Source: an uncultured Bacilli bacterium
GTDB taxonomy: Bacteria; Bacillota_I; Bacilli_A; RF39; UBA660
Assembly (NCBI GenBank): GCA_934101595.1
Contig: CAKORR010000001.1
Location: 107,558-171,557 of the forward strand
Direction: 5' to 3'
Length of the DNA: 64,000 nucleotides
Under the pieces are notes generated by a model. The model worked only from the letters and a program-made list of their open reading frames with translations, was not told the DNA's origin and searched no databases. A program made the position numbers and the translations under genes. Positions 6,470-56,849 of this stretch are shown piece after piece (within the stretch, counting starts at the first letter, position 1; every line of letters begins with the position of its first letter).

Positions 6470-6573
6470 TTCTTCACTCCTCGTATTTTTCTAACAATTA
6501 TTATACCTAATATGCTTTAAAAACTCAAGGACTATATAAAATTTTAAATAAAAAAAGTTCATAAAAATGAACT

Positions 6574-8109
6574 TTAAGATATACCTAAATCTGCAAATGT
6601 ATTTGTTGAATAATATCCAAATTTAACGTTATTTTGATTTAAACTTGTATTACCTTCGAAAGGTTTTGCCGAAGTAGAACCAAGTGTTATAGTTTTATTA
6701 ATTGTTAAACTATTTAATTTATTATTTTTAAATGCCGATGAATCAATGGTTACTTCGGAGTTTATCTCTAACTCAGTTAAATCATTGCCATAAAAAGCAC
6801 TAGCTTCAATAGTTTTAATTGTCGTCGGTAAGTAAACATTCTTTAATCCGCAATTGTTAAACATTCCATTTGCAATTCTTTCTAAGCCTTCGGGCAATTC
6901 TAACTTGGCTATTTTAATTCCGGTAAAATAATTCACATCTTTTAAATTTAATTGTTTTAAATTACTTAAATCCACAAGATTGTAAAAACAGTCTGTTCTA
7001 CCATCGGTAGTTCCACTACATCCTCCCCAGTTAAATCCTCCAATGACATGGTCTTCTCCACCTTCATCAAGAGGCGTTTTTCCGGTATAGTCTGAGCCAC
7101 TTTTTAAAAACATAAACTTTATGTTCAAGTAAGCGTTGCTTCCATCGTCATTTTCATAAAATACTTGATCTTGACCCAGTGATAATTCTGGATTAATGCT
7201 AAATAAATCTTTGCTTACTTCATCAGATAATTCACTATATCTTATAATGCTTTTCGTTTCGTAGCCACTTTCACTAGCATCAAATTGATTTACTGCAGCA
7301 CTTAACGTATTATAATTAGCTTCATCAAGAATTACATAAACATCTTTTGATTCATTTGTGTCTTGATAATATAAAACATTTCCCTTTTGGAATGTTTGGT
7401 TAATCATATATTTTGCTGTTATTCCTTTAATTGTTTCGGGAACTATTATATTTTCACCACATTTATAATTGTTATAGTAACCCAAAAGTCCATTTGATCC
7501 TATCAAGAAACAATCTTCGCTACTTTCTTTTATCCCCTTTTGTGTTTGGCTTGCTACTACTACTACTTTACTATCAAACACCTTATTTTGTTCGGTCATT
7601 GGTGTATTTTCATCCATCCACATTTTTATACTATGAGTTTTGCTTTTATCCTTTTCACTTGTTCCTAATACTCCAACATATAGTTCTTTATCAAATCTTG
7701 CATTTGCCTCTTTTTTGACATTTACTGTTTCATATTTAGTAAGAGCTCTTCCCACTTTATTATCTAGAGCTATTTTTATATTACTTTCATCTATATAATT
7801 TGTATTTGTGCTATTTGTTAATGCCTCTAAATTTACAGAATATGATATTTCATTATTACAATTATTTGTTACGGTAAATTGATATCCGCTTCCTTTTATT
7901 CCTTCGCTATCTGGTGTTGGAAATGTATTATTTAGGGCTATTCCATCTCCATTATCACTAAAGTTTATATCCAAACATGACGAAGTTAATGTATTTACTC
8001 CACTTTGACTTTTTGTTACTTGCCATAACGCATATGTTCCTGCTACTACTAGTGTTATTAATAACATTACTATTATGCTTGTTAAAATTATCCTCCTTTT
8101 GGTATCCAT
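6574..8109 (-). CDS. exported surface protein, paralog 1: TasA/camelysin-like SipW-type signal peptide + beta-rich domain + BspA-type LRR C-terminus
   Basis: 511 aa. The N-terminus ...LLITLVVAGTYALWQVTKSQSG resembles SipW-cognate signals such as TasA GGGTWAAFND. The C-terminus has LRR_5/BspA-like repeats (LPTTIKTIEASAFYGN..., SSAFKNNKLNSLTI). N-terminal ~300 aa are near-identical to the 34560-36086 protein. Confidence 0.6.
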   Translation of the reverse strand: MDTKRRIILTSIIVMLLITLVVAGTYALWQVTKSQSGVNTLTSSCLDINFSDNGDGIALNNTFPTPDSEGIKGSGYQFTVTNNCNNEISYSVNLEALTNSTNTNYIDESNIKIALDNKVGRALTKYETVNVKKEANARFDKELYVGVLGTSEKDKSKTHSIKMWMDENTPMTEQNKVFDSKVVVVASQTQKGIKESSEDCFLIGSNGLLGYYNNYKCGENIIVPETIKGITAKYMINQTFQKGNVLYYQDTNESKDVYVILDEANYNTLSAAVNQFDASESGYETKSIIRYSELSDEVSKDLFSINPELSLGQDQVFYENDDGSNAYLNIKFMFLKSGSDYTGKTPLDEGGEDHVIGGFNWGGCSGTTDGRTDCFYNLVDLSNLKQLNLKDVNYFTGIKIAKLELPEGLERIANGMFNNCGLKNVYLPTTIKTIEASAFYGNDLTELEINSEVTIDSSAFKNNKLNSLTINKTITLGSTSAKPFEGNTSLNQNNVKFGYYSTNTFADLGIS

Positions 8110-8132: not shown

Positions 8133-8161
8133 ATTATAAGAAAAATAAACAATTCAGTCAA
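8133..8161 (-). promoter_or_regulatory. near-consensus sigma-A promoter for paralog 1 (TTGACT-17nt-TATAAT)
   Basis: On the minus strand, TTGACT is the reverse complement of 8156-8161. A 17-nt spacer follows, then TATAAT (reverse complement of 8133-8138). AAGGAGA RBS lies 8 nt before the ATG. No homopolymer tract is present. Confidence 0.5.
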
Positions 8162-25273: not shown

Positions 25274-26167
25274 TTATTTCAAGTATTCATTAGACATTTC
25301 ATCATATTTTTGGTCTAATCGATTAGCTAAATCTTGTTTGGTTATTACCCCGTCCTTATTTAGATCTAATCCTGCATTATAATTATAATAAGACTCGCCT
25401 TTTGTTGCTAAAACATCTTTATTTGCTCTACCTGGTAAGAACATTATTGAATAAAGTGTTCCCGCATCAAGCTCTTGATCTTTATTATAATAATTGCAAT
25501 TTTTTACATATTTTTCAACTAAATCAAGTTGATCTGTTGCGGACATATTAGCTATTTCTTCAGTAGTGTAGCCTAAGCTTTTAGCTGTAGCTGGCATAAA
25601 TTGAATTAATCCTACTGCCCTAGTGCTTTTTTCAATGTGATTTGGATTTAATCCACATTCCGAATACATAATAGCTAGTAAGTCATTGGGATCACAATTA
25701 AGATTTTTAGCGACTTCTTCAACCTTAGCACTAAATCCTGGTTCAAACTTTTGATCCAAACTAGAGGCTAAATTAGCATCTATCACTGTTGTCGCAGTAT
25801 TTGAATTAGTTGTTTTAGCGTTTTCATTATAAGTAAGAGGATCCTTAGAATAGATATCCTCCTCTTTTTTCTGCTCTTCATTTTCAATCGCTTCAGTTGA
25901 CGAAACTATTTCTTTTATTTTACCATTAACAGTATCCGCATATTCTATAAAGTCATTTACCAGAGTAGTAATCCTATTATAGGCAATATTAATAGTTTCA
26001 TTAGCAATTCCTTGTAAGTAGCCATTACTACTAATACTATTTAAATTATGGCGATATTCTTCTAAATCAGATGCTAAATTATTCTTGACTGATTTAATGG
26101 AATTTGCTAAATCATTTAGCTCACTAACATTAACTTTAGTATAAGAAAAATTAGCCATTACTACCAC
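25274..26167 (-). CDS. LXG-like N-terminal domain fused to a family-1 lytic transglycosylase (SLT) domain (candidate effector B)
   Basis: 297 aa with no signal peptide. N-terminus has SNGYLQGIANETINIAYNRI. C-terminus has ...MYSECGLNP...AVGLIQFMPATAKSLGY (SLT E-S ... GLMQ...P-x-TA motif) and a Ca-loop-like DLNKDGVITKQD. Confidence 0.6.
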   Translation of the reverse strand: MVVMANFSYTKVNVSELNDLANSIKSVKNNLASDLEEYRHNLNSISSNGYLQGIANETINIAYNRITTLVNDFIEYADTVNGKIKEIVSSTEAIENEEQKKEEDIYSKDPLTYNENAKTTNSNTATTVIDANLASSLDQKFEPGFSAKVEEVAKNLNCDPNDLLAIMYSECGLNPNHIEKSTRAVGLIQFMPATAKSLGYTTEEIANMSATDQLDLVEKYVKNCNYYNKDQELDAGTLYSIMFLPGRANKDVLATKGESYYNYNAGLDLNKDGVITKQDLANRLDQKYDEMSNEYLK

Positions 26168-34494: not shown

Positions 34495-34559
34495 AATAAC
34501 ACCTCAACTTAATTGATTATAACACGTTTAAAAAAAAAATACATTAAATAATGTATCTT

Positions 34560-36086
34560 TTAACTAATATTTAAATCTGCAAATGTATTTGTCGAATAAT
34601 ATCCAAATTTAACGTTATTTTGATTTAAACTTGTATTACCTTCGAAAGGTTTATACTTAGTAGAACTAAGTGTTATTGTTTTATTAATTGTTAAACTATT
34701 TAATTTATTATTTTTAAATGCCGATGAATCAATGGTTACTTCGGAGTTTATCTCTAACTCTGTTATGTTATTACTAGAAAAAGCGTTGTCGCCAATTTCT
34801 TTAAGAGTTGTCGGTAAATAAACATTTGTTAATCCACAATTGGAAAACATTTGCTGTGCTATTTTTTCTAGCCCTTCAGGTAATTCCAATTTAGATATTT
34901 TAATCCCAGGAAAGTATTCATAATCTCCTAAATTCAATTGTTTTAATTTACTTAAATCCACAAGATTGTAAAAACAATCTGTTCTATCTGAGTCATACAT
35001 GCAACTTGCAGAGTTATATAAACCAATTATATAATCTGTACCCATTACTACTTCGGTAGGATTATTTCCAGAATAGTCTGTGCCGCTTTTTAAATACATA
35101 AACTTTATACCATTGTATACGCTGCTGCCATCGTCATTTGTATAGTCGTCGCCAATGCCAATCATTGAATTTGGAATACTAAACAAATCTTTGCTTACTT
35201 CATCAGATAATTCACTATATCTTATAATGCTTTTCGTTTCATAACCACTTTCGCTCGCATCAAATTGATTTACTGCAGCACTTAACGTATTATAATTAGC
35301 TTCGTCAAGAATTACATAAACGTCTTTTGATTCATTTGTGTCTTGATAATATAAAACATTTCCCTTTTGAAAAGCCGGGTTAATCATATTTTTTGGCGTT
35401 ATTCCTTTAATTGTTTCGGGAACTATTATATTTTCACCACATTTATAATTGTTATAGTAACCCAAAAGTCCATTTGATCCTATCAAGAAACAATCTTCGC
35501 TACTTTCTTTTATCCCCTTTTGTGTTTGGCTTGCTACTACTACTACTTTACTATCAAACACCTTATTTTGTTCGGTCATTGGTGTATTTTCATCCATCCA
35601 CATTTTTATACTATGAGTTTTGCTTTTATCCTTTTCACTTGTTCCTAATACTCCAACATATAGTTCTTTATCAAATCTTGCATTTGCCTCTTTTTTGACA
35701 TTTACTGTTTCATATTTAGTAAGAGCTCTTCCCACTTTATTATCTAGAGCTATTTTTATATTACTTTCATCTATATAATTTGTATTTGTGCTATTTGTTA
35801 ATGCCTCTAAATTTACAGAATATGATATTTCATTATTACAATTATTTGTTACGGTAAATTGATATCCGCTTCCTTTTATTCCTTCGCTATCTGGTGTTGG
35901 AAATGTATTATTTAGGGCTATTCCATCTCCATTATCACTAAAGTTTATATCCAAACATGACGAAGTTAATGTATTTACTCCACTTTGACTTTTTGTTACT
36001 TGCCATAACGCATATGTTCCTGCTACTACTAGCGTTATTAATAACATTACTATTATGCTTGTTAAAATTATCTTCCTCTTATTCAT
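34560..36086 (-). CDS. exported surface protein, paralog 2 (TasA-like signal + LRR), driven by a poly-G-containing promoter
   Basis: 508 aa. Residues 5-225 are identical to paralog 1, then a mosaic divergent middle and a similar LRR C-terminus. RBS GAAGGTAGG. Confidence 0.6.
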   Translation of the reverse strand: MNKRKIILTSIIVMLLITLVVAGTYALWQVTKSQSGVNTLTSSCLDINFSDNGDGIALNNTFPTPDSEGIKGSGYQFTVTNNCNNEISYSVNLEALTNSTNTNYIDESNIKIALDNKVGRALTKYETVNVKKEANARFDKELYVGVLGTSEKDKSKTHSIKMWMDENTPMTEQNKVFDSKVVVVASQTQKGIKESSEDCFLIGSNGLLGYYNNYKCGENIIVPETIKGITPKNMINPAFQKGNVLYYQDTNESKDVYVILDEANYNTLSAAVNQFDASESGYETKSIIRYSELSDEVSKDLFSIPNSMIGIGDDYTNDDGSSVYNGIKFMYLKSGTDYSGNNPTEVVMGTDYIIGLYNSASCMYDSDRTDCFYNLVDLSKLKQLNLGDYEYFPGIKISKLELPEGLEKIAQQMFSNCGLTNVYLPTTLKEIGDNAFSSNNITELEINSEVTIDSSAFKNNKLNSLTINKTITLSSTKYKPFEGNTSLNQNNVKFGYYSTNTFADLNIS

Positions 36087-36106: not shown

Positions 36107-36137
36107 ACTATACCCCCCCCCCCGCGTATTTTGTCAA
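36107..36137 (-). promoter_or_regulatory. promoter with an 11-nt G homopolymer inside the -35/-10 spacer (putative phase-variation switch)
   Basis: Minus-strand reading is TTGACA (reverse complement of 36132-36137), AAATACGC, G×11 (plus-strand C run 36113-36123), then TATAGT (reverse complement of 36107-36112). Spacer is 19 nt. ATG lies 21 nt further downstream. Confidence 0.6.
36113..36123. repeat. homopolymeric C11 (G11 on the coding strand) tract
   Basis: Counted directly: C at 36113-36123. An 11-nt G/C run in a genome of very low GC. Confidence 0.9.
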
Positions 36138-36164
36138 GCAAAAAAACACGATATATTCGTGTTT
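36138..36164 (-). terminator. intrinsic terminator downstream of the 36177-36548 gene, abutting the -35 box
   Basis: Minus-strand hairpin AAACACG-AATATAT-CGTGTTT followed by TTTTTT, then GCTTGACA. Confidence 0.55.
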
Positions 36165-38627: not shown

Positions 38628-40484
38628 CTACATTATATCTCGTAACATTTCCGTATACTTCTTATTTAAACGATTAGCTAGATCTTGTTTAGTTATTACT
38701 CCATCGCCATCCACGTCTAAACCCCTATTATAAGAATAATAGCTTTCGCCTTTGACACATAAAGTATTTTTCTTGGCTCTACCTGGTAAGAACATAACCG
38801 CATATAATGTACCAGCATCTAATTCTTCGCCATTTTTGTAAGGACTAGCGCTTTTAATATATTTTTCAACTAAATCAAGTTGATCTGTTGCGGACATATT
38901 GGCTATCTGTTCAGTCGTGTAACCAAGATTACGAGCAGTGCTTGGCATAAATTGGATAAGGCCAACAGCTCTACTACTGCTTTCAATATGAGATGGATCA
39001 AGAGCACATTCTGAATACATAAGAGCAAGTAAATCATTTGGATCACAATTAACATTTTTAGCGACTTGTTCTAGTTTAGCACTAAATCCTGGCTCGAATC
39101 TGTCATCCAAACAACTTGCTAAAGCACTATCTAATACTTCTACTTTAGGAGAGCTAGTATTAGTACTTGTCTGAGCCGCGGATACTCCTTTTTCATTTGC
39201 TCTTTTATGGGCAGCTTCATTTCTATCTTTAGTTGCTTGTTCTCTTTCACTAATTTCCTTAGTATCACTTTCTTTAGATACAGCTTCTTTAACTTCTGTT
39301 TTTTCTTTAACCTCAGATTTTTTATCATCCTTACCAGATTCTGTTTCGTCAGTCTTTTTAGTTGCCACACTAACAGAACCAATGGCTGCAGCACCAATTA
39401 CGCCTTCAAATACTGGAGGGTTAATATCAAATGCTTCCTCTTCTTTTTCCTCAAACTTAAGACCTGTATATTTGCTAATAACATCTGCGGCACTTACAGG
39501 ATCATTACTTTCTTCTTTTTGACCTGGAATTGTAAGCACTTGTCCAGGATATATCAAGTTTGGATTATCGATCTTATCAGCGTTTGCTTCATAAAGCTCT
39601 TTCCAGTCAATTCCATATTTCGCTGCAATTTTAATTAAATAGTCACCTTTTTCAACAACATATGTTCCGTGATTAGAAGATGTACTATCACTACTAGTCC
39701 TTTTTCTTTCTTTAGCATATTCAAAGTCATTACGATATTCAAATTGTTTAATCTTGGCAAAATGATATTTTAACAAATTTAATTGGCGAGTTGCTTCATC
39801 AAGACATTTTTTAATATTAACTTTTATATTATTACACGCTGAATAGAAAAAACCACTAACTTGATAATCACTAGAAGATAAATCGTCATTGCCACTTGGA
39901 ATTTGAAAATCACTTGACCTCATGGAATTCATATTCAACATTTGCATATTTAAATATTTTACTATATTATTTAAGGGCTCAATGACTTGCTTCTCAAAAG
40001 TTGCTAAGTTTATCTCATATTTATCTGAATTATAGTTTTCCCATGGAGTAACCTCTATTTCCACAATTGGAGTTAAAACAGAAACTATTTCTTCTTTCTT
40101 TTTGATGATTTTCTTTTTTAATTCTTTAAGTGTCGAAGATATTATAATCTTTTGTTGAGCCAACATATAAACGTCCGCATGATCTTTATATGCAATTTCT
40201 TCATCTATAGTTTTGCACGCTTTGTATTTACTTTCATAAGATAACTTTAGGGCAAGTAAACCATCGGTTGGATTCATTACTAAATCAACCGCTTTGCTAT
40301 AATCTTTTAGCTGGTACATAATGCCTTCATTTTGGATATAGCTCAACATTCTATCAATAATATAGCATCTCCGCTTTAATTCAGCTGCTCTTTTTCCGTA
40401 AAACATCAAAGTTGCCGGATTAAATCTTTTAGATATCTGATATGCAAGAAAAATATTATTTGTATCTATTTTTACTTTAACCAT
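38628..40484 (-). CDS. LXG-like N-terminal domain + LysM + family-1 lytic transglycosylase (SLT) (candidate effector H)
   Basis: 618 aa with no signal peptide. N-terminus has ...LMFYGKRAAELKRRCYII (compare F-x-G-K-x-A-x-x-I-K of LXG domains). LysM at YVVEKGDYLIKIAAKYGIDWKELYEANAD...GQVLTIPG, then a K/E-rich low-complexity linker. The C-terminal SLT domain is about 70% identical to that of 25274-26167 (MYSECALDP...AVGLIQFMPSTARNLGY). Confidence 0.65.
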   Translation of the reverse strand: MVKVKIDTNNIFLAYQISKRFNPATLMFYGKRAAELKRRCYIIDRMLSYIQNEGIMYQLKDYSKAVDLVMNPTDGLLALKLSYESKYKACKTIDEEIAYKDHADVYMLAQQKIIISSTLKELKKKIIKKKEEIVSVLTPIVEIEVTPWENYNSDKYEINLATFEKQVIEPLNNIVKYLNMQMLNMNSMRSSDFQIPSGNDDLSSSDYQVSGFFYSACNNIKVNIKKCLDEATRQLNLLKYHFAKIKQFEYRNDFEYAKERKRTSSDSTSSNHGTYVVEKGDYLIKIAAKYGIDWKELYEANADKIDNPNLIYPGQVLTIPGQKEESNDPVSAADVISKYTGLKFEEKEEEAFDINPPVFEGVIGAAAIGSVSVATKKTDETESGKDDKKSEVKEKTEVKEAVSKESDTKEISEREQATKDRNEAAHKRANEKGVSAAQTSTNTSSPKVEVLDSALASCLDDRFEPGFSAKLEQVAKNVNCDPNDLLALMYSECALDPSHIESSSRAVGLIQFMPSTARNLGYTTEQIANMSATDQLDLVEKYIKSASPYKNGEELDAGTLYAVMFLPGRAKKNTLCVKGESYYSYNRGLDVDGDGVITKQDLANRLNKKYTEMLRDIM

Positions 40485-48356: not shown

Positions 48357-50030
48357 TTATAATTCATATTTAACTACAGCATCACCGCTCCAGTTACTTC
48401 CTAAAGTCATTCCTGTTGCATCAGCTCTTTTTATAGTAATTGTTGATGCATTAGTTAGGCCATTAAATGCTCTATCATCTATTTTGGTTACACTATTTGG
48501 AATAATGACATTTGTAATTGTTGACTGAGCAAACGCGGCGTTATAAATTTCCGTATATCCTTGGGCAATTTCTAATTTATTAATTTTCATGTTTGTGAAT
48601 GCGCCATTAGCAACTGTTTCATTAGTATTAATATGGCCTAAAATATCATGACCAGTTACATACGTAAATGTTAAATTATTAATGGTTGACCCTTCAAAAT
48701 ATCCTATTGCACTATACTCATTTACAGGGTTAAATATTAATGATCCATAAAGTTCTAGAGTATCAATATTACTATAGGCAAATGCTCCAACACCAATTTT
48801 TATATCACTAGTATTAACTCCAAAATTTAGACTTGTTAGTCCAACTCTTTGAGTTTGTGTTGTATCAAGTTCATATGATGTTTTTCCATCACTTGTCGTC
48901 TCTTTATACATAACATTTGAAAATGCAAATTTTTCTATTTCTTCTAGTTTAGTGGCTTTTGAGAAATTAACACCTTTTATTACTAAAGAAGCACTAACTT
49001 TTGGCGTTTGGCTTACCGTCATTTCACCGTCTTCACTTTCAGGTAAAATATAATATAATCCTTCTTCTCCAGCCGTTGCCGTTTCGGGTACATCAGATTC
49101 TTTAGTTACATAAGTAATAGTTGCTGTTTGATCCTCTTCTGTTAAACCATTTAGTAATGCTTCTATACGTGATCTATTTGATTCATTTTTTACAAGAATA
49201 TAATATTTCATTCCTATGTAAACATCGTTAGTAGAGTCATATGTTGCATTTGATGAATCATTCCACATCATAAAATCAGTTAAGTCCTTTTCTTGTCTAA
49301 ATGCACTTGTTGCTATTTTCTTAACATCTTTTTTATTAACACTTTCAGGAATAACTACATTTTCTCCACATGAAGTATCATATGCGGTAATCACTCCATT
49401 AGAATCTATTGTAAAGCAGTTTTCTGGAGTAGCAACTAAACCTTCATTGTCATTTTTAATTCCTTGTCCACCCGTTATAAATATTTTTCCATTAAATTGT
49501 TTTCCTTGTTCAGTAATAGGTGCATTTTCATCAATCCATATTTTTAGCAAATGAGTCTTAGTGGCATTACCACCTATAGATGCGGTTTTTAATTCTTTTG
49601 ATGATCTATAAGTATCAGGGCCTTCGATATCATTTAAACTACCATATGTTCCTAAAACCTCATTATCTATAGATAGTGCAACAGCACTATCTGACATATA
49701 TCCCGTATTTGCATCCCCATCTACTGATTCCAAACCTATAATATAATTTACGGCATTACTACAATTATTAGTTACCGTAAAAGTGTATCCAGTTAAATCA
49801 TTTTGAGCATTAGCACTAGTCATTGGCCAGCTATTTTCTAAACTGATGGGTGTGCCTTCGCCTACTTTATTAAGATCTAAATCTAGACATGCCGCGATCA
49901 TGCTATTTTTATCTTTTTGAGTTTTAGTTACTTGCCATAAGGCATAAGTCGAAGCAACTATTATTAAAAGAACTAAGCAGATTCCAATAGACATACCAAT
50001 AATTTTATTACGTCTAACACTATTTTCCAT
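48357..50030 (-). CDS. exported surface protein, paralog 3 (TasA-like signal + LRR)
   Basis: 557 aa. N-terminus ...LLIIVASTYALWQVTKTQKDKNS. Shared core CFTIDSNGVITAYDTSCGENVVIPESV. LRR-like C-terminus. Upstream TTGACT-18nt-TATTAT promoter candidate has no homopolymer. Confidence 0.6.
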   Translation of the reverse strand: MENSVRRNKIIGMSIGICLVLLIIVASTYALWQVTKTQKDKNSMIAACLDLDLNKVGEGTPISLENSWPMTSANAQNDLTGYTFTVTNNCSNAVNYIIGLESVDGDANTGYMSDSAVALSIDNEVLGTYGSLNDIEGPDTYRSSKELKTASIGGNATKTHLLKIWIDENAPITEQGKQFNGKIFITGGQGIKNDNEGLVATPENCFTIDSNGVITAYDTSCGENVVIPESVNKKDVKKIATSAFRQEKDLTDFMMWNDSSNATYDSTNDVYIGMKYYILVKNESNRSRIEALLNGLTEEDQTATITYVTKESDVPETATAGEEGLYYILPESEDGEMTVSQTPKVSASLVIKGVNFSKATKLEEIEKFAFSNVMYKETTSDGKTSYELDTTQTQRVGLTSLNFGVNTSDIKIGVGAFAYSNIDTLELYGSLIFNPVNEYSAIGYFEGSTINNLTFTYVTGHDILGHINTNETVANGAFTNMKINKLEIAQGYTEIYNAAFAQSTITNVIIPNSVTKIDDRAFNGLTNASTITIKRADATGMTLGSNWSGDAVVKYEL

Positions 50031-50130
50031 ATATTAACCTACTTTCTATGTTAATAATACAATTAACTCTTTTGGATAGTCAATATAAATTAAATAAATA
50101 AACATTTTTTTACATAAAAAAAGCCCTATA

Positions 50131-51951
50131 TTAAGGCTCAAATTTAATTGTTGCATTGCTACTCCAATTTTCACCTAAAGTCATGCCATCTAGATTTGCT
50201 CTTTTCATAATTATTGTGTCTTTTTCTATAGCACCAGCAAATGCCTTTTCGCCAATAATCTTAACATTTTTAGGCACGACTATAGAAGTTAATAAAAAGT
50301 CGTTTTCACTATCTTCATCACTAAAAACAAATTGATATCCGCCAATTTCGATTAATGATTCTGGCAAATTTACATTTTTTATAAATACGCTTTGAAATGA
50401 TTGTTCACTTATTTTAGTAATGCCTTCGCTTATATTAACAGTTGTAACATAGGATAGAAAAAATTGGCCGCTTAAAACCGATCCGATTACTCCGCCAACA
50501 GTTGTATCATCAACAGTTTTATCTTTATAGTCAATCACAGTATTATCCTTAGATGGTTTAATTGTTAGATTATTAATTGAACTCATACCAAATGTTTGTG
50601 AATTGTATCCTTTTTCTATAGTGCCTGTAAGCGAATTATAAACTGTTAATTTATCAAGTTTGCTAAACAAAAAAGCCCCCGTACCTATTTTTATGGCATT
50701 ATCATTAGCCCCAAAATTAATATAAGTTAATCCAAAATCTAAAGAATTATCAAAATTATCTTTACCATTAGCAGTTGCCTTATCATAATTTGCTGAAATT
50801 TTATCAAGACCAGCTTCGGTCGTACCATCATAAAGGGTAAATGCATATGGTTCTATTTCTTCTAAGTAAATTGCTTTTGAAAAATCTACTCCTTTAATAG
50901 TAAATATATTGTCCTTATAAGGAGTTTGAGCTAATAAAAATTCATCCTCGCCATTCTCATCCTTGGCAATAATGCCATACTTACCTTCTTCTGTTTCACT
51001 CGCTGTTGTTGGAAGTTCTGATTCGTTATTTATGAAAAAGTTATTTGAGGCTTCTTCTTCAGATACTTTTTTAAAAAACTCTTCTATTCTACTCTTGGCT
51101 TTGTCATTTTTAACTATTATATAATACTTTATTCCTGTAGTCTTATCTTCTTTTTCATCATACACCGAAGAACTTAAATCTTCCCAAAGCAAAAAATCTG
51201 TAACATCTTTTTCTGGTCTAAATGCGTTAGTAGCGATCTTTTTTACTTTGACATTGTTAACGCTTGCAGGTATTACAACCATTTCTCCACAAGAATCATC
51301 ATATTTAGAAATAATTCCATTAGAATCTATTGTAAAACATTTTTCCGGAGTTGCTAATAACCCTGGATTATCATTTAAAATTCCTTGACCACCAGTTATA
51401 AATATTTTTCCATTAAAGGCTTTTCCCTGTTCCGTAATAGGAGCTCTTTCATCAATCCATATTTTTAATAAATGCGTATTGGTTTCTTTTCCCTTGATTT
51501 CAGCAGTTTTTATTTCTTTTGATAAAATATATGTATCAGGGCCTTCGATATCATTTAAGCTATTAAATGTTCCTAACACATCGTCATCAATTGCTAATGC
51601 AACTGCTGATGCACTTAAACTTGCTAGCCTTTCATCTTCTAATGATTCAAGTCCTATTACATAACTTATTGGCGTATCACAATTATTAGTTACGGTAAAT
51701 GTATATCCTGTTAATTCTTTTACGGCATCAACCGCATTCATAGGCCAACTATTTTCAAGGTTAATAACACTACCTTCACCAGTTTTGTTAAGATCAAGAT
51801 CTAGGCATGCCGCAATCATACTATTTTTATCTTTTTGCGTTTTAGTTACTTGCCATAAGGCATAAGTCGAAGCAATTATAATTAGAAGTACCAGAGCAAT
51901 TCCTATAGATACCCCTATAATTTTGTTATGTTTATTATTTTCACTTTTCAT
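50131..51951 (-). CDS. exported surface protein, paralog 4 (TasA-like signal + LRR), driven by a poly-G-containing promoter
   Basis: 606 aa. N-terminus ...LLIIIASTYALWQVTKTQKDKNS. In tandem with paralog 3. RBS TAGGATGG. Confidence 0.6.
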   Translation of the reverse strand: MKSENNKHNKIIGVSIGIALVLLIIIASTYALWQVTKTQKDKNSMIAACLDLDLNKTGEGSVINLENSWPMNAVDAVKELTGYTFTVTNNCDTPISYVIGLESLEDERLASLSASAVALAIDDDVLGTFNSLNDIEGPDTYILSKEIKTAEIKGKETNTHLLKIWIDERAPITEQGKAFNGKIFITGGQGILNDNPGLLATPEKCFTIDSNGIISKYDDSCGEMVVIPASVNNVKVKKIATNAFRPEKDVTDFLLWEDLSSSVYDEKEDKTTGIKYYIIVKNDKAKSRIEEFFKKVSEEEASNNFFINNESELPTTASETEEGKYGIIAKDENGEDEFLLAQTPYKDNIFTIKGVDFSKAIYLEEIEPYAFTLYDGTTEAGLDKISANYDKATANGKDNFDNSLDFGLTYINFGANDNAIKIGTGAFLFSKLDKLTVYNSLTGTIEKGYNSQTFGMSSINNLTIKPSKDNTVIDYKDKTVDDTTVGGVIGSVLSGQFFLSYVTTVNISEGITKISEQSFQSVFIKNVNLPESLIEIGGYQFVFSDEDSENDFLLTSIVVPKNVKIIGEKAFAGAIEKDTIIMKRANLDGMTLGENWSSNATIKFEP

Positions 51952-51973
51952 ATTTTACTACCATCCTATTTTA

Positions 51974-52003
51974 ACTATACCCCCCCCCGGAGCATTTTGT
52001 CAA
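51974..52003 (-). promoter_or_regulatory. promoter with a 9-nt G homopolymer inside the -35/-10 spacer (putative phase-variation switch)
   Basis: Minus-strand reading is TTGACA (reverse complement of 51998-52003), AAATGCTCC, G×9 (plus-strand C run 51980-51988), then TATAGT (reverse complement of 51974-51979). Spacer is 18 nt. The flanks are conserved with the 36107-36137 cassette. Confidence 0.6.
51980..51988. repeat. homopolymeric C9 (G9 on the coding strand) tract
   Basis: Counted directly: C at 51980-51988. Confidence 0.9.
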
Positions 52004-52034
52004 ATAAAAAAACATATGCTTTTAACATATGTTT
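52004..52034 (-). terminator. intrinsic terminator downstream of the TPM-domain gene, abutting the -35 box
   Basis: Minus-strand hairpin AAACATATG-TTAAAAG-CATATGTTT followed by TTTTTTATT, then TGACA. Confidence 0.55.
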
Positions 52035-52048
52035 ACATAAGAAAAATT

Positions 52049-53489: not shown

Positions 53490-56400
53490 TTAAATTTTCT
53501 CGATATCAATTAGTACTTCATGAGAATTTATATCAAGCTTCTCATTTAAATTATCCTTTTTAGAAATTTCAACAGCTAAAGTTTCATCTTTAATATATTG
53601 TTCAAATTCTTTGAATGATTTTTCTATTTCTTGATCAGCATTGTAATATAATTTTATACGATCAACTACATCAAAGTCTTTATTTTTTCTTAATTGTTGA
53701 ACTTTAGAAACGATTTCTCTAGCATTTCCTTCAAGAATTAATTTATCTGTTAATTCAGTATTTAAAATAACAAATAAATTATTATCCATGCCAACATTAA
53801 AGCCTTCTTTATTAGAAATTCTAATATCAATTAGATCACGAGTAATTTCATAATCCTTACCATTTATTTTTAAAGTAACAGATTCACTATTTTCTAGTTT
53901 TTTAATAGAATCTTTGTCTAACTCTTTTAAAGCATTTTGATATTCTTTAATATCTTTGCCAAATACTTTACCTGCCTCTTTAAAGTTCGGTCTAATTTCT
54001 AAATTCATGTATTCATTTAAATCATCATTAAACTTAACATTTTTAACGTTCAACTCTTCTTCAATCAACCATACTAAATCATCAATAATAGCTTTTTTTC
54101 CGCCATCTAAGATAATCTCACTTAAAGGTTGACGAACCTTTATTTTGTTTTCTTCCCTAACCATACGTCCAATCGAAATTAAATCTCTTACTAAATCCAT
54201 CTTTTCTTCTAATTTATCATTTATTAGCGATAAATCATACTTAGGGAAATCTTCTAAATGAACAGATTCTTTGTCAGTCAAATTGGTAAATATTTCCTCA
54301 CTAATAAAAGGAGTGATTGGGGCAATCATTTTTGATAACCCAACTAATACATCATATGTAGTTTTATATACAGCTTTTTTTGAATTATCTAAATCGCTTT
54401 GCCAGAACCTTTTTCTATTTCTTCTAATATACCAGTTAGATAAGTCATTTGAAACAAACTCTGTTACAGCTTTGACAACTTTATTTAAATCATATTCATC
54501 ATAACTATCAGTAACATATTTTAAAAGTTTATTATATTTTGATAAAAGCCACTTATCTATTTCTTCTAAATCATCATATGATACATCACATGCATTAATA
54601 TCAATCTCATCCGTATTAGCATACATAGCAAAGAAATTATAGGTGTTTTTTAGAGGATTAAAGAATTTAGAATATACTTCTTTCATACCATTTATATCAA
54701 ATTTAAGTGGAGTCCATACTGGTGATACGTATGGTAAATAGAATCTTACTACATCAGCACCATACTCTTTAATTGTTGTAAATGGTTCGACTATATTGCC
54801 TCTACTTTTAGACATCTTATGTCCATCTTTATCTTGAATTAGATCATTTACTAATACGCTTTTAAATGGGCTTACCCCTTTTACAAAAACTGAAATAACA
54901 AGTAGCGTATAGAACCAACCTCTTGTTTGATCTATGCCTTCACAGATAAAATCAGCAGGAAACTGAGAATTGAACAACTCTTCATTTTCAAAAGGATAAT
55001 GATACTGAGCAAATGGCATTGATCCAGAATCAAACCAACAATCAATTACATCTTTTGCACGAGTCATTTTTCCTTGACATTTAGGGCATCTTAAATGAAC
55101 ATTATCTACATATGGTCTATGTAATTCAATAGATGTATCAATATCTTCGATTGCAAGATCTACAAGTTCTTTTCTACTTCCAACCATGATACTGTGACCA
55201 CATTCACAAATCCAATATGGAAGTGGGGTTCCCCAATATCTTGAACGAGATATTGCCCAATCTTTTAAATTCTCAAGCCAATTTCCAAAACGCTTCTCGC
55301 CAACATATTCTGGATACCATTTAACTTTTTTATTTGCTTCAATTATTTTATCTTTAATTTTTGTTATTTCAAGATAATAACTAGGTTTTGAATAGTAAAT
55401 AAGTGGTGAATCACATCTCCAGCAATGAGGATAAGCATGAACTATTTTTTGCTTTTTAAATAGTTTATCATTTTTCTTTAAATATTCTATAACTAACTTG
55501 TCGGCATCAAAAACGTTCATACCTTTCCATGGACCGTCTAAATATTTTCCATCTTCTCCTACTGGATTTAAATATGGTAAATTATATTTTTTACCTACGT
55601 TAGCGTCATCTTCACCAAATGCAGGAGCTAAGTGAACAATACCGGTACCATCTTCCATTGTTACATAGTTATCTACAGTTACGTAAAATGCCTTTTTGTT
55701 AACTGATAAGCCAGGAATTAATTGCTCATATTCACTATACTCTAAATCTTTACCTAAATAAGTTCCTAATATTTCATATTCATCTCCTAGAACCTTATTA
55801 GCTAATTTTTTTGCTAAAATAAATTTATAACCTTGAGAAAGAACTTTAACATATTCTTCATTAGGATTTACACATAATGCCACATTGGCAACTAAAGTCC
55901 AAGGAGTTGTTGTCCATACTAAGAAGTAAACATCCTCATCTTTTTTCTTCATAGGAACAATAACTGTTTCTACTGAAACATCTTTATATCCTTGCGCAAC
56001 TTCATGTGAAGCTAAACCTGTTCCACATCTAGGACAATATGGTAATATTTTAGATCCTTCATAAAATAGTCCCTCATCAAAGAATTTTTTTAATATCCAC
56101 CATTCAGTTTCAATATAATCATTTTGATAAGTTACATAAGGATGTTCCAAATCAATGAATTGGCCCATTTTACTAGTCAATAATGAAAAAGCCTTTTCAT
56201 TTTTCCAAACACTTTCACGGCACTTTTTATTAAATTCTTCGATACCATATTTTTCGATATCTTTTTTGCCACTAAAGCCTAACTCTTTTTCTACTTGCAA
56301 CTCAACTGGAAGGCCATGAGTATCCCATCCAACTTTTCTTAATACTCTCTTACCTTGCATTGTTTTGTACTTACAAAATGTATCTTTTAAAAACTTAGCA

Positions 56401-56585
56401 AGCATATGATGTAAACCTGGAAGTCCGTTAGCTGTTGCAGGGCCATCATAAAAAACAAAGTTTTCACAATTTTTTCTATTTTCAATTGTTTCTTCTAATA
56501 TCTTGTTAACTCCGCCCCATTTTTTTAGAATACTTTCTTCAACTTGATCAACAGGTCTTTTGTCTAATTCTTTAAAATTTTTCAT
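53490..56585 (-). CDS. ileS: isoleucine--tRNA ligase (long, type-2-like form)
   Basis: About 1030 aa class I aaRS with a HIGH-region variant (...GLPGLHHMLAKF...) and KMSKSRGN. Size and insertions fit IleRS. The start is set at MKNFKEL (ATG 56583-56585) with an AAAGGA RBS rather than the longer track ORF. Confidence 0.85.
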   Translation of the reverse strand: MKNFKELDKRPVDQVEESILKKWGGVNKILEETIENRKNCENFVFYDGPATANGLPGLHHMLAKFLKDTFCKYKTMQGKRVLRKVGWDTHGLPVELQVEKELGFSGKKDIEKYGIEEFNKKCRESVWKNEKAFSLLTSKMGQFIDLEHPYVTYQNDYIETEWWILKKFFDEGLFYEGSKILPYCPRCGTGLASHEVAQGYKDVSVETVIVPMKKKDEDVYFLVWTTTPWTLVANVALCVNPNEEYVKVLSQGYKFILAKKLANKVLGDEYEILGTYLGKDLEYSEYEQLIPGLSVNKKAFYVTVDNYVTMEDGTGIVHLAPAFGEDDANVGKKYNLPYLNPVGEDGKYLDGPWKGMNVFDADKLVIEYLKKNDKLFKKQKIVHAYPHCWRCDSPLIYYSKPSYYLEITKIKDKIIEANKKVKWYPEYVGEKRFGNWLENLKDWAISRSRYWGTPLPYWICECGHSIMVGSRKELVDLAIEDIDTSIELHRPYVDNVHLRCPKCQGKMTRAKDVIDCWFDSGSMPFAQYHYPFENEELFNSQFPADFICEGIDQTRGWFYTLLVISVFVKGVSPFKSVLVNDLIQDKDGHKMSKSRGNIVEPFTTIKEYGADVVRFYLPYVSPVWTPLKFDINGMKEVYSKFFNPLKNTYNFFAMYANTDEIDINACDVSYDDLEEIDKWLLSKYNKLLKYVTDSYDEYDLNKVVKAVTEFVSNDLSNWYIRRNRKRFWQSDLDNSKKAVYKTTYDVLVGLSKMIAPITPFISEEIFTNLTDKESVHLEDFPKYDLSLINDKLEEKMDLVRDLISIGRMVREENKIKVRQPLSEIILDGGKKAIIDDLVWLIEEELNVKNVKFNDDLNEYMNLEIRPNFKEAGKVFGKDIKEYQNALKELDKDSIKKLENSESVTLKINGKDYEITRDLIDIRISNKEGFNVGMDNNLFVILNTELTDKLILEGNAREIVSKVQQLRKNKDFDVVDRIKLYYNADQEIEKSFKEFEQYIKDETLAVEISKKDNLNEKLDINSHEVLIDIEKI

Positions 56586-56619
56586 AACCATTTCCTTTCT
56601 AAAATAAAAAACACCCATC

Positions 56620-56800
56620 CAAAGGACGAATGTTTCGTGGTACCACCTTAATTATACTCATCTTAATAACGCCATCTAGACGGATTATCTTACACTTATT
56701 TCAGATAATCAGCTCCCAAGTGATTTTAGATAATTTCTTCTTCTTAGTTTTCACCAACCACTAATTCTCTTTAAGAATAGATTACCTAACATGTCTTGTT
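56620..56800 (-). promoter_or_regulatory. T-box riboswitch leader (Ile specifier) upstream of ileS
   Basis: Minus-strand AATTAAGGTGGTACCACG (reverse complement of 56636-56653) matches the T-box consensus AAUUAGGGUGGUACCGCG at 16 of 18 positions. AAAGAGA K-turn-like stem I start (about 56761-56772). GAAAUUAUC contains Ile codons AUU/AUC in the specifier-loop region (about 56728-56737). The terminator region precedes the RBS. Confidence 0.7.
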
Positions 56801-56849
56801 CATTGCTTTTATAGTCATTAGTATATCACAATTTTTTTAAATATCTAGT

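Follow-up and report, generated by a model that had tools for sequence, protein, structure and literature searches.

Probable recurrent gene conversion between two BspA-type surface protein genes of an uncultured gut Bacilli bacterium

The stretch of 64,000 nucleotides analyzed here (contig CAKORR010000001.1, positions 107,558 to 171,557; referred to as the window) comes from an uncultured Bacilli bacterium and carries two related genes, paralog 1 and paralog 2, whose products are predicted to be complete BspA-type leucine-rich-repeat (LRR) surface proteins, either membrane-anchored or secreted. The two genes form a same-strand direct repeat with a spacing of 27,980 bp, as found by a repeat search and by self-BLAST of the window, and the first 0.9 kb of their coding sequences is nearly identical. 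Recurrent ectopic gene conversion between the paralogs was the best explanation of this pattern and is considered probable. Judged from their synonymous divergence, the paralogs appear to be old, with variable regions near synonymous saturation, and the 5' 0.9 kb appears to have been homogenized recently. The process was presumably RecA-type conversion, and the exchange between the paralogs is presumed to be ongoing.

The repeat between paralogs 1 and 2 is real and statistically unambiguous. A near-identical direct repeat of about 0.9 kb with copies 28 kb apart had been reported in a preliminary description of the window, and self-BLAST, the repeat search, and base-by-base DNA alignment agreed on it (Table 1). 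Paralogs 1 and 2 were the only close copies found by self-BLAST in the window. In the base-by-base alignment, the first 5 to 6 codons of the two genes were locus-specific, and the mismatches inside the 888-bp tract were confined to a single one at 8053 and 14 between 7417 and 7261. The 3' coding ends (6699-6577 versus 34685-34563) were 89.4% identical; downstream of the stop codon, the similarity was weak and gone after ~30 nt. The upstream flanks of the two genes were unrelated, with an identity of ~41% that corresponds to the AT-rich background level, and these unrelated flanks, together with the abrupt boundary at codon ~6, rule out a recent segmental duplication. When the 179 differing columns were permuted 100,000 times, the longest identical run reached 152 bp, compared to 635 bp observed, and with third codon positions only, the observed run was 211 versus a permutation maximum of 93. 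Two identical plus-strand open reading frames (ORFs), taken in the preliminary description for a side effect of the repeat, are indeed spurious by-products of it.

Divergence at synonymous (dS) and nonsynonymous (dN) sites between the two window genes was determined by the Nei-Gojobori method. Saturated synonymous divergence, which according to the preliminary description would mean an old duplication with no ongoing exchange, was checked for and was absent from codons 7-226, where dS was only 0.007 (1 synonymous difference in 135 synonymous sites) and dN was 0. Further along the gene, dS and dN were 0.34 and 0.021 in codons 227-305, 0.84 and 0.33 in codons 306-400, 0.68 and 0.13 in codons 401-470, and 0.15 and 0.097 in codons 471-513. 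The synonymous contrast between the shared tract and the remainder was significant at p = 4e-20 (Fisher test). Protein-level selection cannot explain the identity because synonymous differences are nearly absent from the tract, and the graded dS along the gene points to homogenizing tracts of different ages. The protein identity described previously was retained as near-identity up to residue ~305, with four substitutions at residues 232-239. The subsequent ~170 residues, said to diverge completely, proved to be alignable throughout, with strong divergence at residues 306-400 and moderate divergence at residues 401-470.

DNA of other strains was gathered by exact look-ups of homologs plus the neighboring FtsA and NusB; the same kind of look-up with P0001 or with the two paralog proteins of the window itself returned no contig. 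The sample comprised 10 other contigs for locus 1 (L001, L005-L009, and L040-L043) and 8 other contigs for locus 2 (L002-L004, L010, L012, L013, L015, and L016), and the counts on locus structure are based on seven alleles of each locus, drawn from other metagenomes. The position of each locus was constant in these contigs, with locus 1 between a gene for a flavin adenine dinucleotide (FAD) protein and ftsA in all 10 and locus 2 between a gene for a 123-aa protein and nusB in all 8. The close relatives come from human-gut datasets, Hadza samples among them, and the host species, with a G+C content of ~28%, is uncultured and known only from metagenomes. The contig to which the window belongs (NCBI/ENA) is 405,683 bp long.

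No fixed differences between the loci were observed in the 5' part of the genes, neither in segment 8092-7434 (8 shared polymorphic sites and an index like the fixation index, Fst, of 0.10) nor in segment 7433-7205 (16 shared polymorphic sites and an Fst-like index of 0.29). Segment 7204-7000 showed 23 fixed inter-locus differences, located in the first 208 bp of the hypervariable block, with 6 shared polymorphic sites and an index of 0.54, and the last 123 bp showed 10 fixed differences, 1 shared polymorphic site, and an index of 0.85. The four-base variant ATAG/TCTT (7660-7651) was present at both loci. Nucleotide diversity (pi) of the tract between strains was 0.7-2%, synonymous sites included, with strains up to 3% apart. 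Within a 659-bp tract, the two copies of one genome were 0-1 nt apart in the three contigs that carry both genes, all of them metagenome assemblies, and orthologs of different strains were 3-22 nt apart.

A near-clonal relative of the window, L002, matched it over 9.5 kb with 14 single-nucleotide polymorphisms (SNPs) as the only differences; these fall in paralog 2 (7417-7261), and every one of them agrees with the paralog-1 allele. Paralog 1 on the same 363,917-bp contig (P0242) carries that allele too, as seen at the protein level, and the pattern in L002 is therefore a conversion-like footprint and not an assembly-path swap. Locus-1 alleles L006/L009, L007, and L041-L043, originating from several independent samples, contained locus-2-like patches with differing breakpoints and private substitutions. 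In the variable region, at least six allele classes were distinguished among strains, and block 6903-6844 of the locus-1 allele L005 was 96% identical to paralog 2 of the window and 80% identical to paralog 1. The mosaic genes and gene conversion suggested previously are supported by dS of 0.007 versus 0.7-0.8, the lack of fixed 5' differences, the shared polymorphisms, and the near-clonal footprint.

Over its final ~150 bp, the gene was 98% identical between the window (6603-6723) and L044, with flanking genes only ~86% identical between these lineages, which points to unusually strong conservation of the 3' block or to between-lineage exchange. No relative was found when the representative genomes in GTDB were scanned with paralog 2. 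The locus cannot be dated with outgroups because the nearest FtsA among these representatives is at most 72% identical and related species are without an LRR gene at this locus.

The two genes differ in their upstream signals, and promoter-like sequences were present as had been claimed, a fixed one at paralog 1 and one with a poly-G spacer at paralog 2. In addition to the promoter, paralog 2 has its own ribosome-binding site and start codon. The poly-G length across seven assemblies was G11, G10, or G9, giving spacers of 19, 19, and 18 nt, respectively, and none of the observed lengths yields the optimal 17-nt spacer. The expected number of runs of at least eight G is 0.1 per window, and the search for such runs gave 6 overlapping matches that belong to two tracts. 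By its sequence, the paralog 2 promoter is built like a promoter-spacer contingency switch, with a presumed switching function, and paralog 2 is probably phase-variable. The poly-G run lies outside the converted tract, and conversion therefore cannot move the switch between the genes. An invertible-promoter switch was ruled out, as no inverted repeats of at least 60 nt were found in the window.

Recurrent non-reciprocal homologous recombination between direct copies 28 kb apart would keep the first ~0.9 kb of the paralogs near-identical. Conversion tracts would stop at codon ~6, which they cannot pass in the upstream direction because homology ends there, and each gene would retain its own expression signal. 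Paralog 1 would keep its consensus-like fixed promoter, and paralog 2 a promoter with a -35/-10 spacing that depends on the G9-G11 run; slipped-strand mispairing would presumably act as its switch. Most tracts would die out in the divergent middle of the genes, leaving a largely distinct hypervariable segment at each locus, and occasional longer or internal tracts would give rise to mosaic alleles.

Several points weigh against recurrent and ongoing conversion. All sequences, the window included, are metagenome assemblies, apparently from short reads, and de Bruijn assemblers can collapse bubbles and choose arbitrary paths through repeats; within-genome identities of "100%" may in reality be ~98-99%, and some of the mosaics may be chimeric. 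Four contigs (L008, L009, L015, and L016) start or end within the repeat, the differences in poly-G length (9-11) could include homopolymer sequencing or assembly error, and, since the tract exchanged in this genome encodes the conserved N terminus, conversion here only homogenizes conserved sequence and does not diversify it. The assembly caveat weakens the claim of ongoing exchange but does not touch the difference between the near-identical tract and a remainder of ~70% identity. Taken to its end, the same caveat would turn the whole pattern into an artifact, with similar copies collapsed to one consensus and chimeric paths mimicking mosaics, which would fit the origin of the contigs, those ending within the repeat, and a 1.8-kb contig (L045) linking the upstream flank of locus 1 to the downstream flank of locus 2. 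Such an artifact is quite improbable, however, since de Bruijn collapse needs a true identity of ~97-99%, far above the ~70% found further along the gene. Furthermore, the 14 segment-B differences at 7417-7261 stay separate in other samples among assemblies that share a project prefix (MERR22), e.g., in L005/L010, the mosaic locus-1 alleles with private substitutions recur in independent samples, and both the segment-B differences and the 8053 mismatch are retained in the window itself. A single recent conversion or partial duplication that overwrote the 5' part of one gene not long before the ancestor of this strain, with no exchange continuing, would be enough for the pattern within the window, and repeat collapse could inflate the within-genome identity in the other assemblies. 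It is nevertheless unlikely, because strains up to 3% apart in the tract have no locus-specific fixed differences there, breakpoints vary among alleles, the dS values form a gradient from one end of the gene to the other (0.007, 0.34, and 0.15 at the 3' end), which implies tracts of different ages, and the near-clonal pair of L002 and the window differs only by a conversion-like patch.

Purifying selection at the nucleotide level, for example on an overlapping RNA or an antisense element, might also keep the 5' regions identical without exchange, and an identical antisense ORF is indeed present in both copies. This ORF is expected as a by-product of the repeat, though, no Rfam match was obtained in or near either gene, the shared tract included, and the distant family members described below (paralogs 3 and 4) do not conserve this DNA. 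The tract is polymorphic between strains, at synonymous sites too, so that constraint on the nucleotide sequence cannot account for the identity; this explanation is effectively refuted, and with synonymous sites and between-strain polymorphism taken together, purifying selection was ruled out as the source of the identity. The preliminary description had further seen in paralog 2 a silent or variable cassette exchanging segments with a constitutive copy. As a rival explanation, this would be classical antigenic variation with paralog 2 as the donor for paralog 1, as in pilS/pilE or vls. The hypervariable block between conserved 5' and 3' blocks, the variable-region blocks common to both loci, and the many alleles in the population would agree with such a system. 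Paralog 2, however, is complete and full length, with a ribosome-binding site, a start codon, and a promoter of its own insulated by an upstream terminator, and only two close copies exist. In addition, the sequence common to both genes in this genome is their conserved N-terminal part, the 23 fixed locus-specific differences persist in the variable core (7204-7000) although some blocks have moved, and paralog 2 is dispensable, as L011 and L014 lack it. The reading of paralog 2 as a silent donor is not supported, and antigenic variation of the classical type is very improbable here.

In the two contigs without paralog 2, L011 (3899-3919) and L014, the empty locus 2 has 21 nt in place of 1,602 bp. 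The terminal 15 nt of the gene are still there, so that the empty locus looks like a deletion remnant. Paralog 2, the presumably switchable copy, thus shows presence/absence polymorphism. The 28-kb interval between the paralogs carries sufBD, ssb, gpsA, recD2, nusB, and xseAB, and because of these housekeeping genes its deletion is probably not tolerated. The repeat had been named as a substrate for deletion or duplication of the interval, which is formally true of direct repeats, but deletion is probably lethal. A junction-like arrangement was recovered in one contig only, L045 (a 1,839-bp Logan contig, DRR198866), in which the locus-1 upstream flank is followed by the gene and the locus-2 downstream flank (nusB). 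It belongs to a divergent lineage with flanks ~86% identical to the window, and its gene differs from the L044 locus-1 gene at 3 of 1,533 nt, all of them in the last two codons. L045 may represent the junction expected of a 28-kb duplication or of an excised circle, or it may be an assembly chimera.

Paralogs 1 and 2 share a common layout with an N-terminal signal-anchor helix, a conserved beta-sandwich domain, a hypervariable segment, and a BspA-type LRR C terminus. LRR_5 (PF13306) near the C terminus was the only Pfam match of either protein, with E=4e-16 and 59.5 bits at residues 393-495 of paralog 1 and E=6.5e-17 and 62.1 bits in paralog 2 (cut-off 27.7). The NCBIfam model adhesin_HupY gave a weak partial match of 37 bits against a cut-off of 1250. 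The first ~190 residues comprise a hydrophobic N-terminal helix followed by the conserved domain, for which no Pfam or NCBIfam model matched. This domain stands at the N terminus of ~2,640 protein clusters, in which it is joined to diverse C-terminal regions, e.g., LRR, PKD, and Big_3. A profile of the domain found only 3 matches in the word-indexed database and nothing significant among PDB sequences, and a profile from full-length family members drew mostly unrelated LRR proteins. The homogenized 0.9 kb encodes the signal anchor, the N-terminal beta-sandwich domain, and the first LRR-like module. The variable segment cannot be placed in a structure because the full-length AlphaFold model is poor, with a predicted local distance difference test (pLDDT) score of 58 that falls below 40 across the variable region and is worst at residues 298-399. 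A role of paralogs 1 and 2 as adhesins or otherwise surface-exposed proteins is presumed.

Two remoter family members, paralog 3 (48357-50030) and paralog 4 (50131-51951), are arranged in tandem and show 28-36% amino-acid identity. Paralogs 3 and 4 were 74.5% identical over the 5' 0.8 kb (49256-50060 and 51177-51980) and much less so beyond, mirroring the layout of a conserved front and a diverged back without near-identity. The promoter region of paralog 4 (51952-52048, minus strand) is homologous to that of paralog 2: the terminator hairpin is identical, and with it come TTGACAAAAT, a G9 run (51980-51988), and TATAGTTAAA; despite these homologous promoters, the coding regions of paralogs 2 and 4 are only ~30% identical at the protein level. 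A poly-G spacer is thus present in two of the four family members (paralogs 2 and 4).

Table 1. Coordinates of paralogs 1 and 2, their repeat segments, and associated signals in the window
Feature	Position	Strand	Description
Paralog 1	6574-8109	-	ORF, 511 aa
Paralog 2	34560-36086	-	ORF, 508 aa
Homogenized tract, paralog 1 copy	7205-8092	-	Codons ~7-302; 873/888 identical (98.3%) to 35185-36072
Homogenized tract, paralog 2 copy	35185-36072	-	DNA alignment with 7205-8092
Perfect 635-bp repeat, paralog 1 copy	7418-8052	-	0 differences versus 35398-36032
Perfect 635-bp repeat, paralog 2 copy	35398-36032	-	0 differences versus 7418-8052
Variable region, paralog 1	6700-7204	-	Codons ~303-470; 71.5% identity to 34686-35184, with indels; hypervariable core at residues 306-400
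Variable region, paralog 2	34686-35184	-	71.5% identity to 6700-7204
Conserved 3' end, paralog 1	6543-6699	-	Includes ~30 nt beyond stop; 89% identity to 34527-34685; 10 fixed locus-specific differences
Conserved 3' end, paralog 2	34527-34685	-	Includes ~30 nt beyond stop
Spurious antisense ORF	7431-7718	+	95 aa; identical to 35411-35698; repeat by-product
Spurious antisense ORF	35411-35698	+	95 aa; twin of 7431-7718; repeat by-product
Promoter-like site, paralog 1	8133-8161	-	TTGACT-17 nt-TATAAT; 11/12 match; without repeat tract
Promoter-like site, paralog 2	36107-36137	-	TTGACA (36137-36132), 19-nt spacer ending in G11 (36123-36113), TATAGT (36112-36107)
Terminator-like hairpin of upstream gene	36144-36164	-	Insulates paralog 2 promoter

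Two other features of the window were recorded. A second, diverged direct repeat (25294-25772 and 38645-39123, 75% identity over 480 bp) sits in two genes with SLT/lysozyme domains (25274-26167 and 38628-40484). The isoleucyl-tRNA synthetase gene (53490-56618) is preceded by a T-box leader (118 bits) at 56619-56812 on the minus strand, an ordinary feature.

By architecture, the closest analogue is the babA/babB/babC family of Helicobacter pylori. The bab genes have N-terminal homology, middle variable, and C-terminal homology regions and occupy separate chromosomal loci that are empty in some strains; intragenomic gene conversion yields chimeras, and one paralog is phase-variable via a frame-shifting CT repeat within its coding sequence (PMC4552749). 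Paralogs 1 and 2 likewise occupy separate loci, have conserved ends around a variable middle, form apparent conversion chimeras, and include one repeat-bearing member, and locus 2 is empty in some strains (L011 and L014). In contrast to the Hop-family outer-membrane proteins encoded by bab, they are signal-anchored BspA-type LRR proteins of a host from a Gram-positive lineage, and the putative switch is a poly-G run in a promoter spacer outside the converted tract instead of a coding CT repeat; the system described here is known from sequence alone. No homology to Hop or Bab proteins was found, Pfam and NCBIfam yielding only LRR_5 for paralogs 1 and 2, and the resemblance to Bab is one of architecture and mechanism only.

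Homopolymer tracts in promoter spacers are known from porA and opc of Neisseria meningitidis and vlp of Mycoplasma hyorhinis. Paralog 2 resembles these genes in the strain-variable homopolymer of 9-11 nt between -35-like and -10-like hexamers with an 18-19-nt spacer; unlike them, it lacks any 17-nt spacer length, and its host is an uncultured commensal. The C-terminal LRR_5 repeats are shared with BspA-type LRR proteins such as BspA of Tannerella forsythia and HupY/LrrG of Streptococcus agalactiae, but the match spans only ~100 residues, and the N-terminal 190-aa domain has no counterpart among Pfam and NCBIfam models. As in pilE/pilS, vlsE, and MgPar of Mycoplasma genitalium, the conserved blocks on either side of a variable one could serve as guides for segmental conversion. 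Unlike in those systems, no promoterless or truncated cassettes were seen, and the only two close copies are both predicted to be expressible.

A more far-reaching proposal is a bab-like two-locus adhesin system in commensal gut Bacilli, with a poly-G switch on paralogs 2 and 4 and conversion via the 5' and 3' blocks moving hypervariable host-facing segments between constitutive and switchable sites in real time, on a widespread and possibly TasA-like N-terminal anchor domain. This is a speculative and rather unlikely extension of recurrent conversion. Conversion between paralogs with a repeat-switched member is of a known kind; new here are the uncultured gut lineage and the poorly described protein family.

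The repeat of 0.64-0.9 kb fragments assemblies of the host species and can yield misleading chimeras in metagenome-assembled genomes (MAGs). The finding also flags an abundant family of surface proteins, with an N-terminal domain unmodelled in Pfam and NCBIfam, for characterization. If the exchange is real and ongoing, the contingency-locus tactics of mucosal pathogens, namely, paralog conversion plus repeat-driven promoter switching, would also be employed by an uncultured member of the healthy human gut community known only from MAGs.

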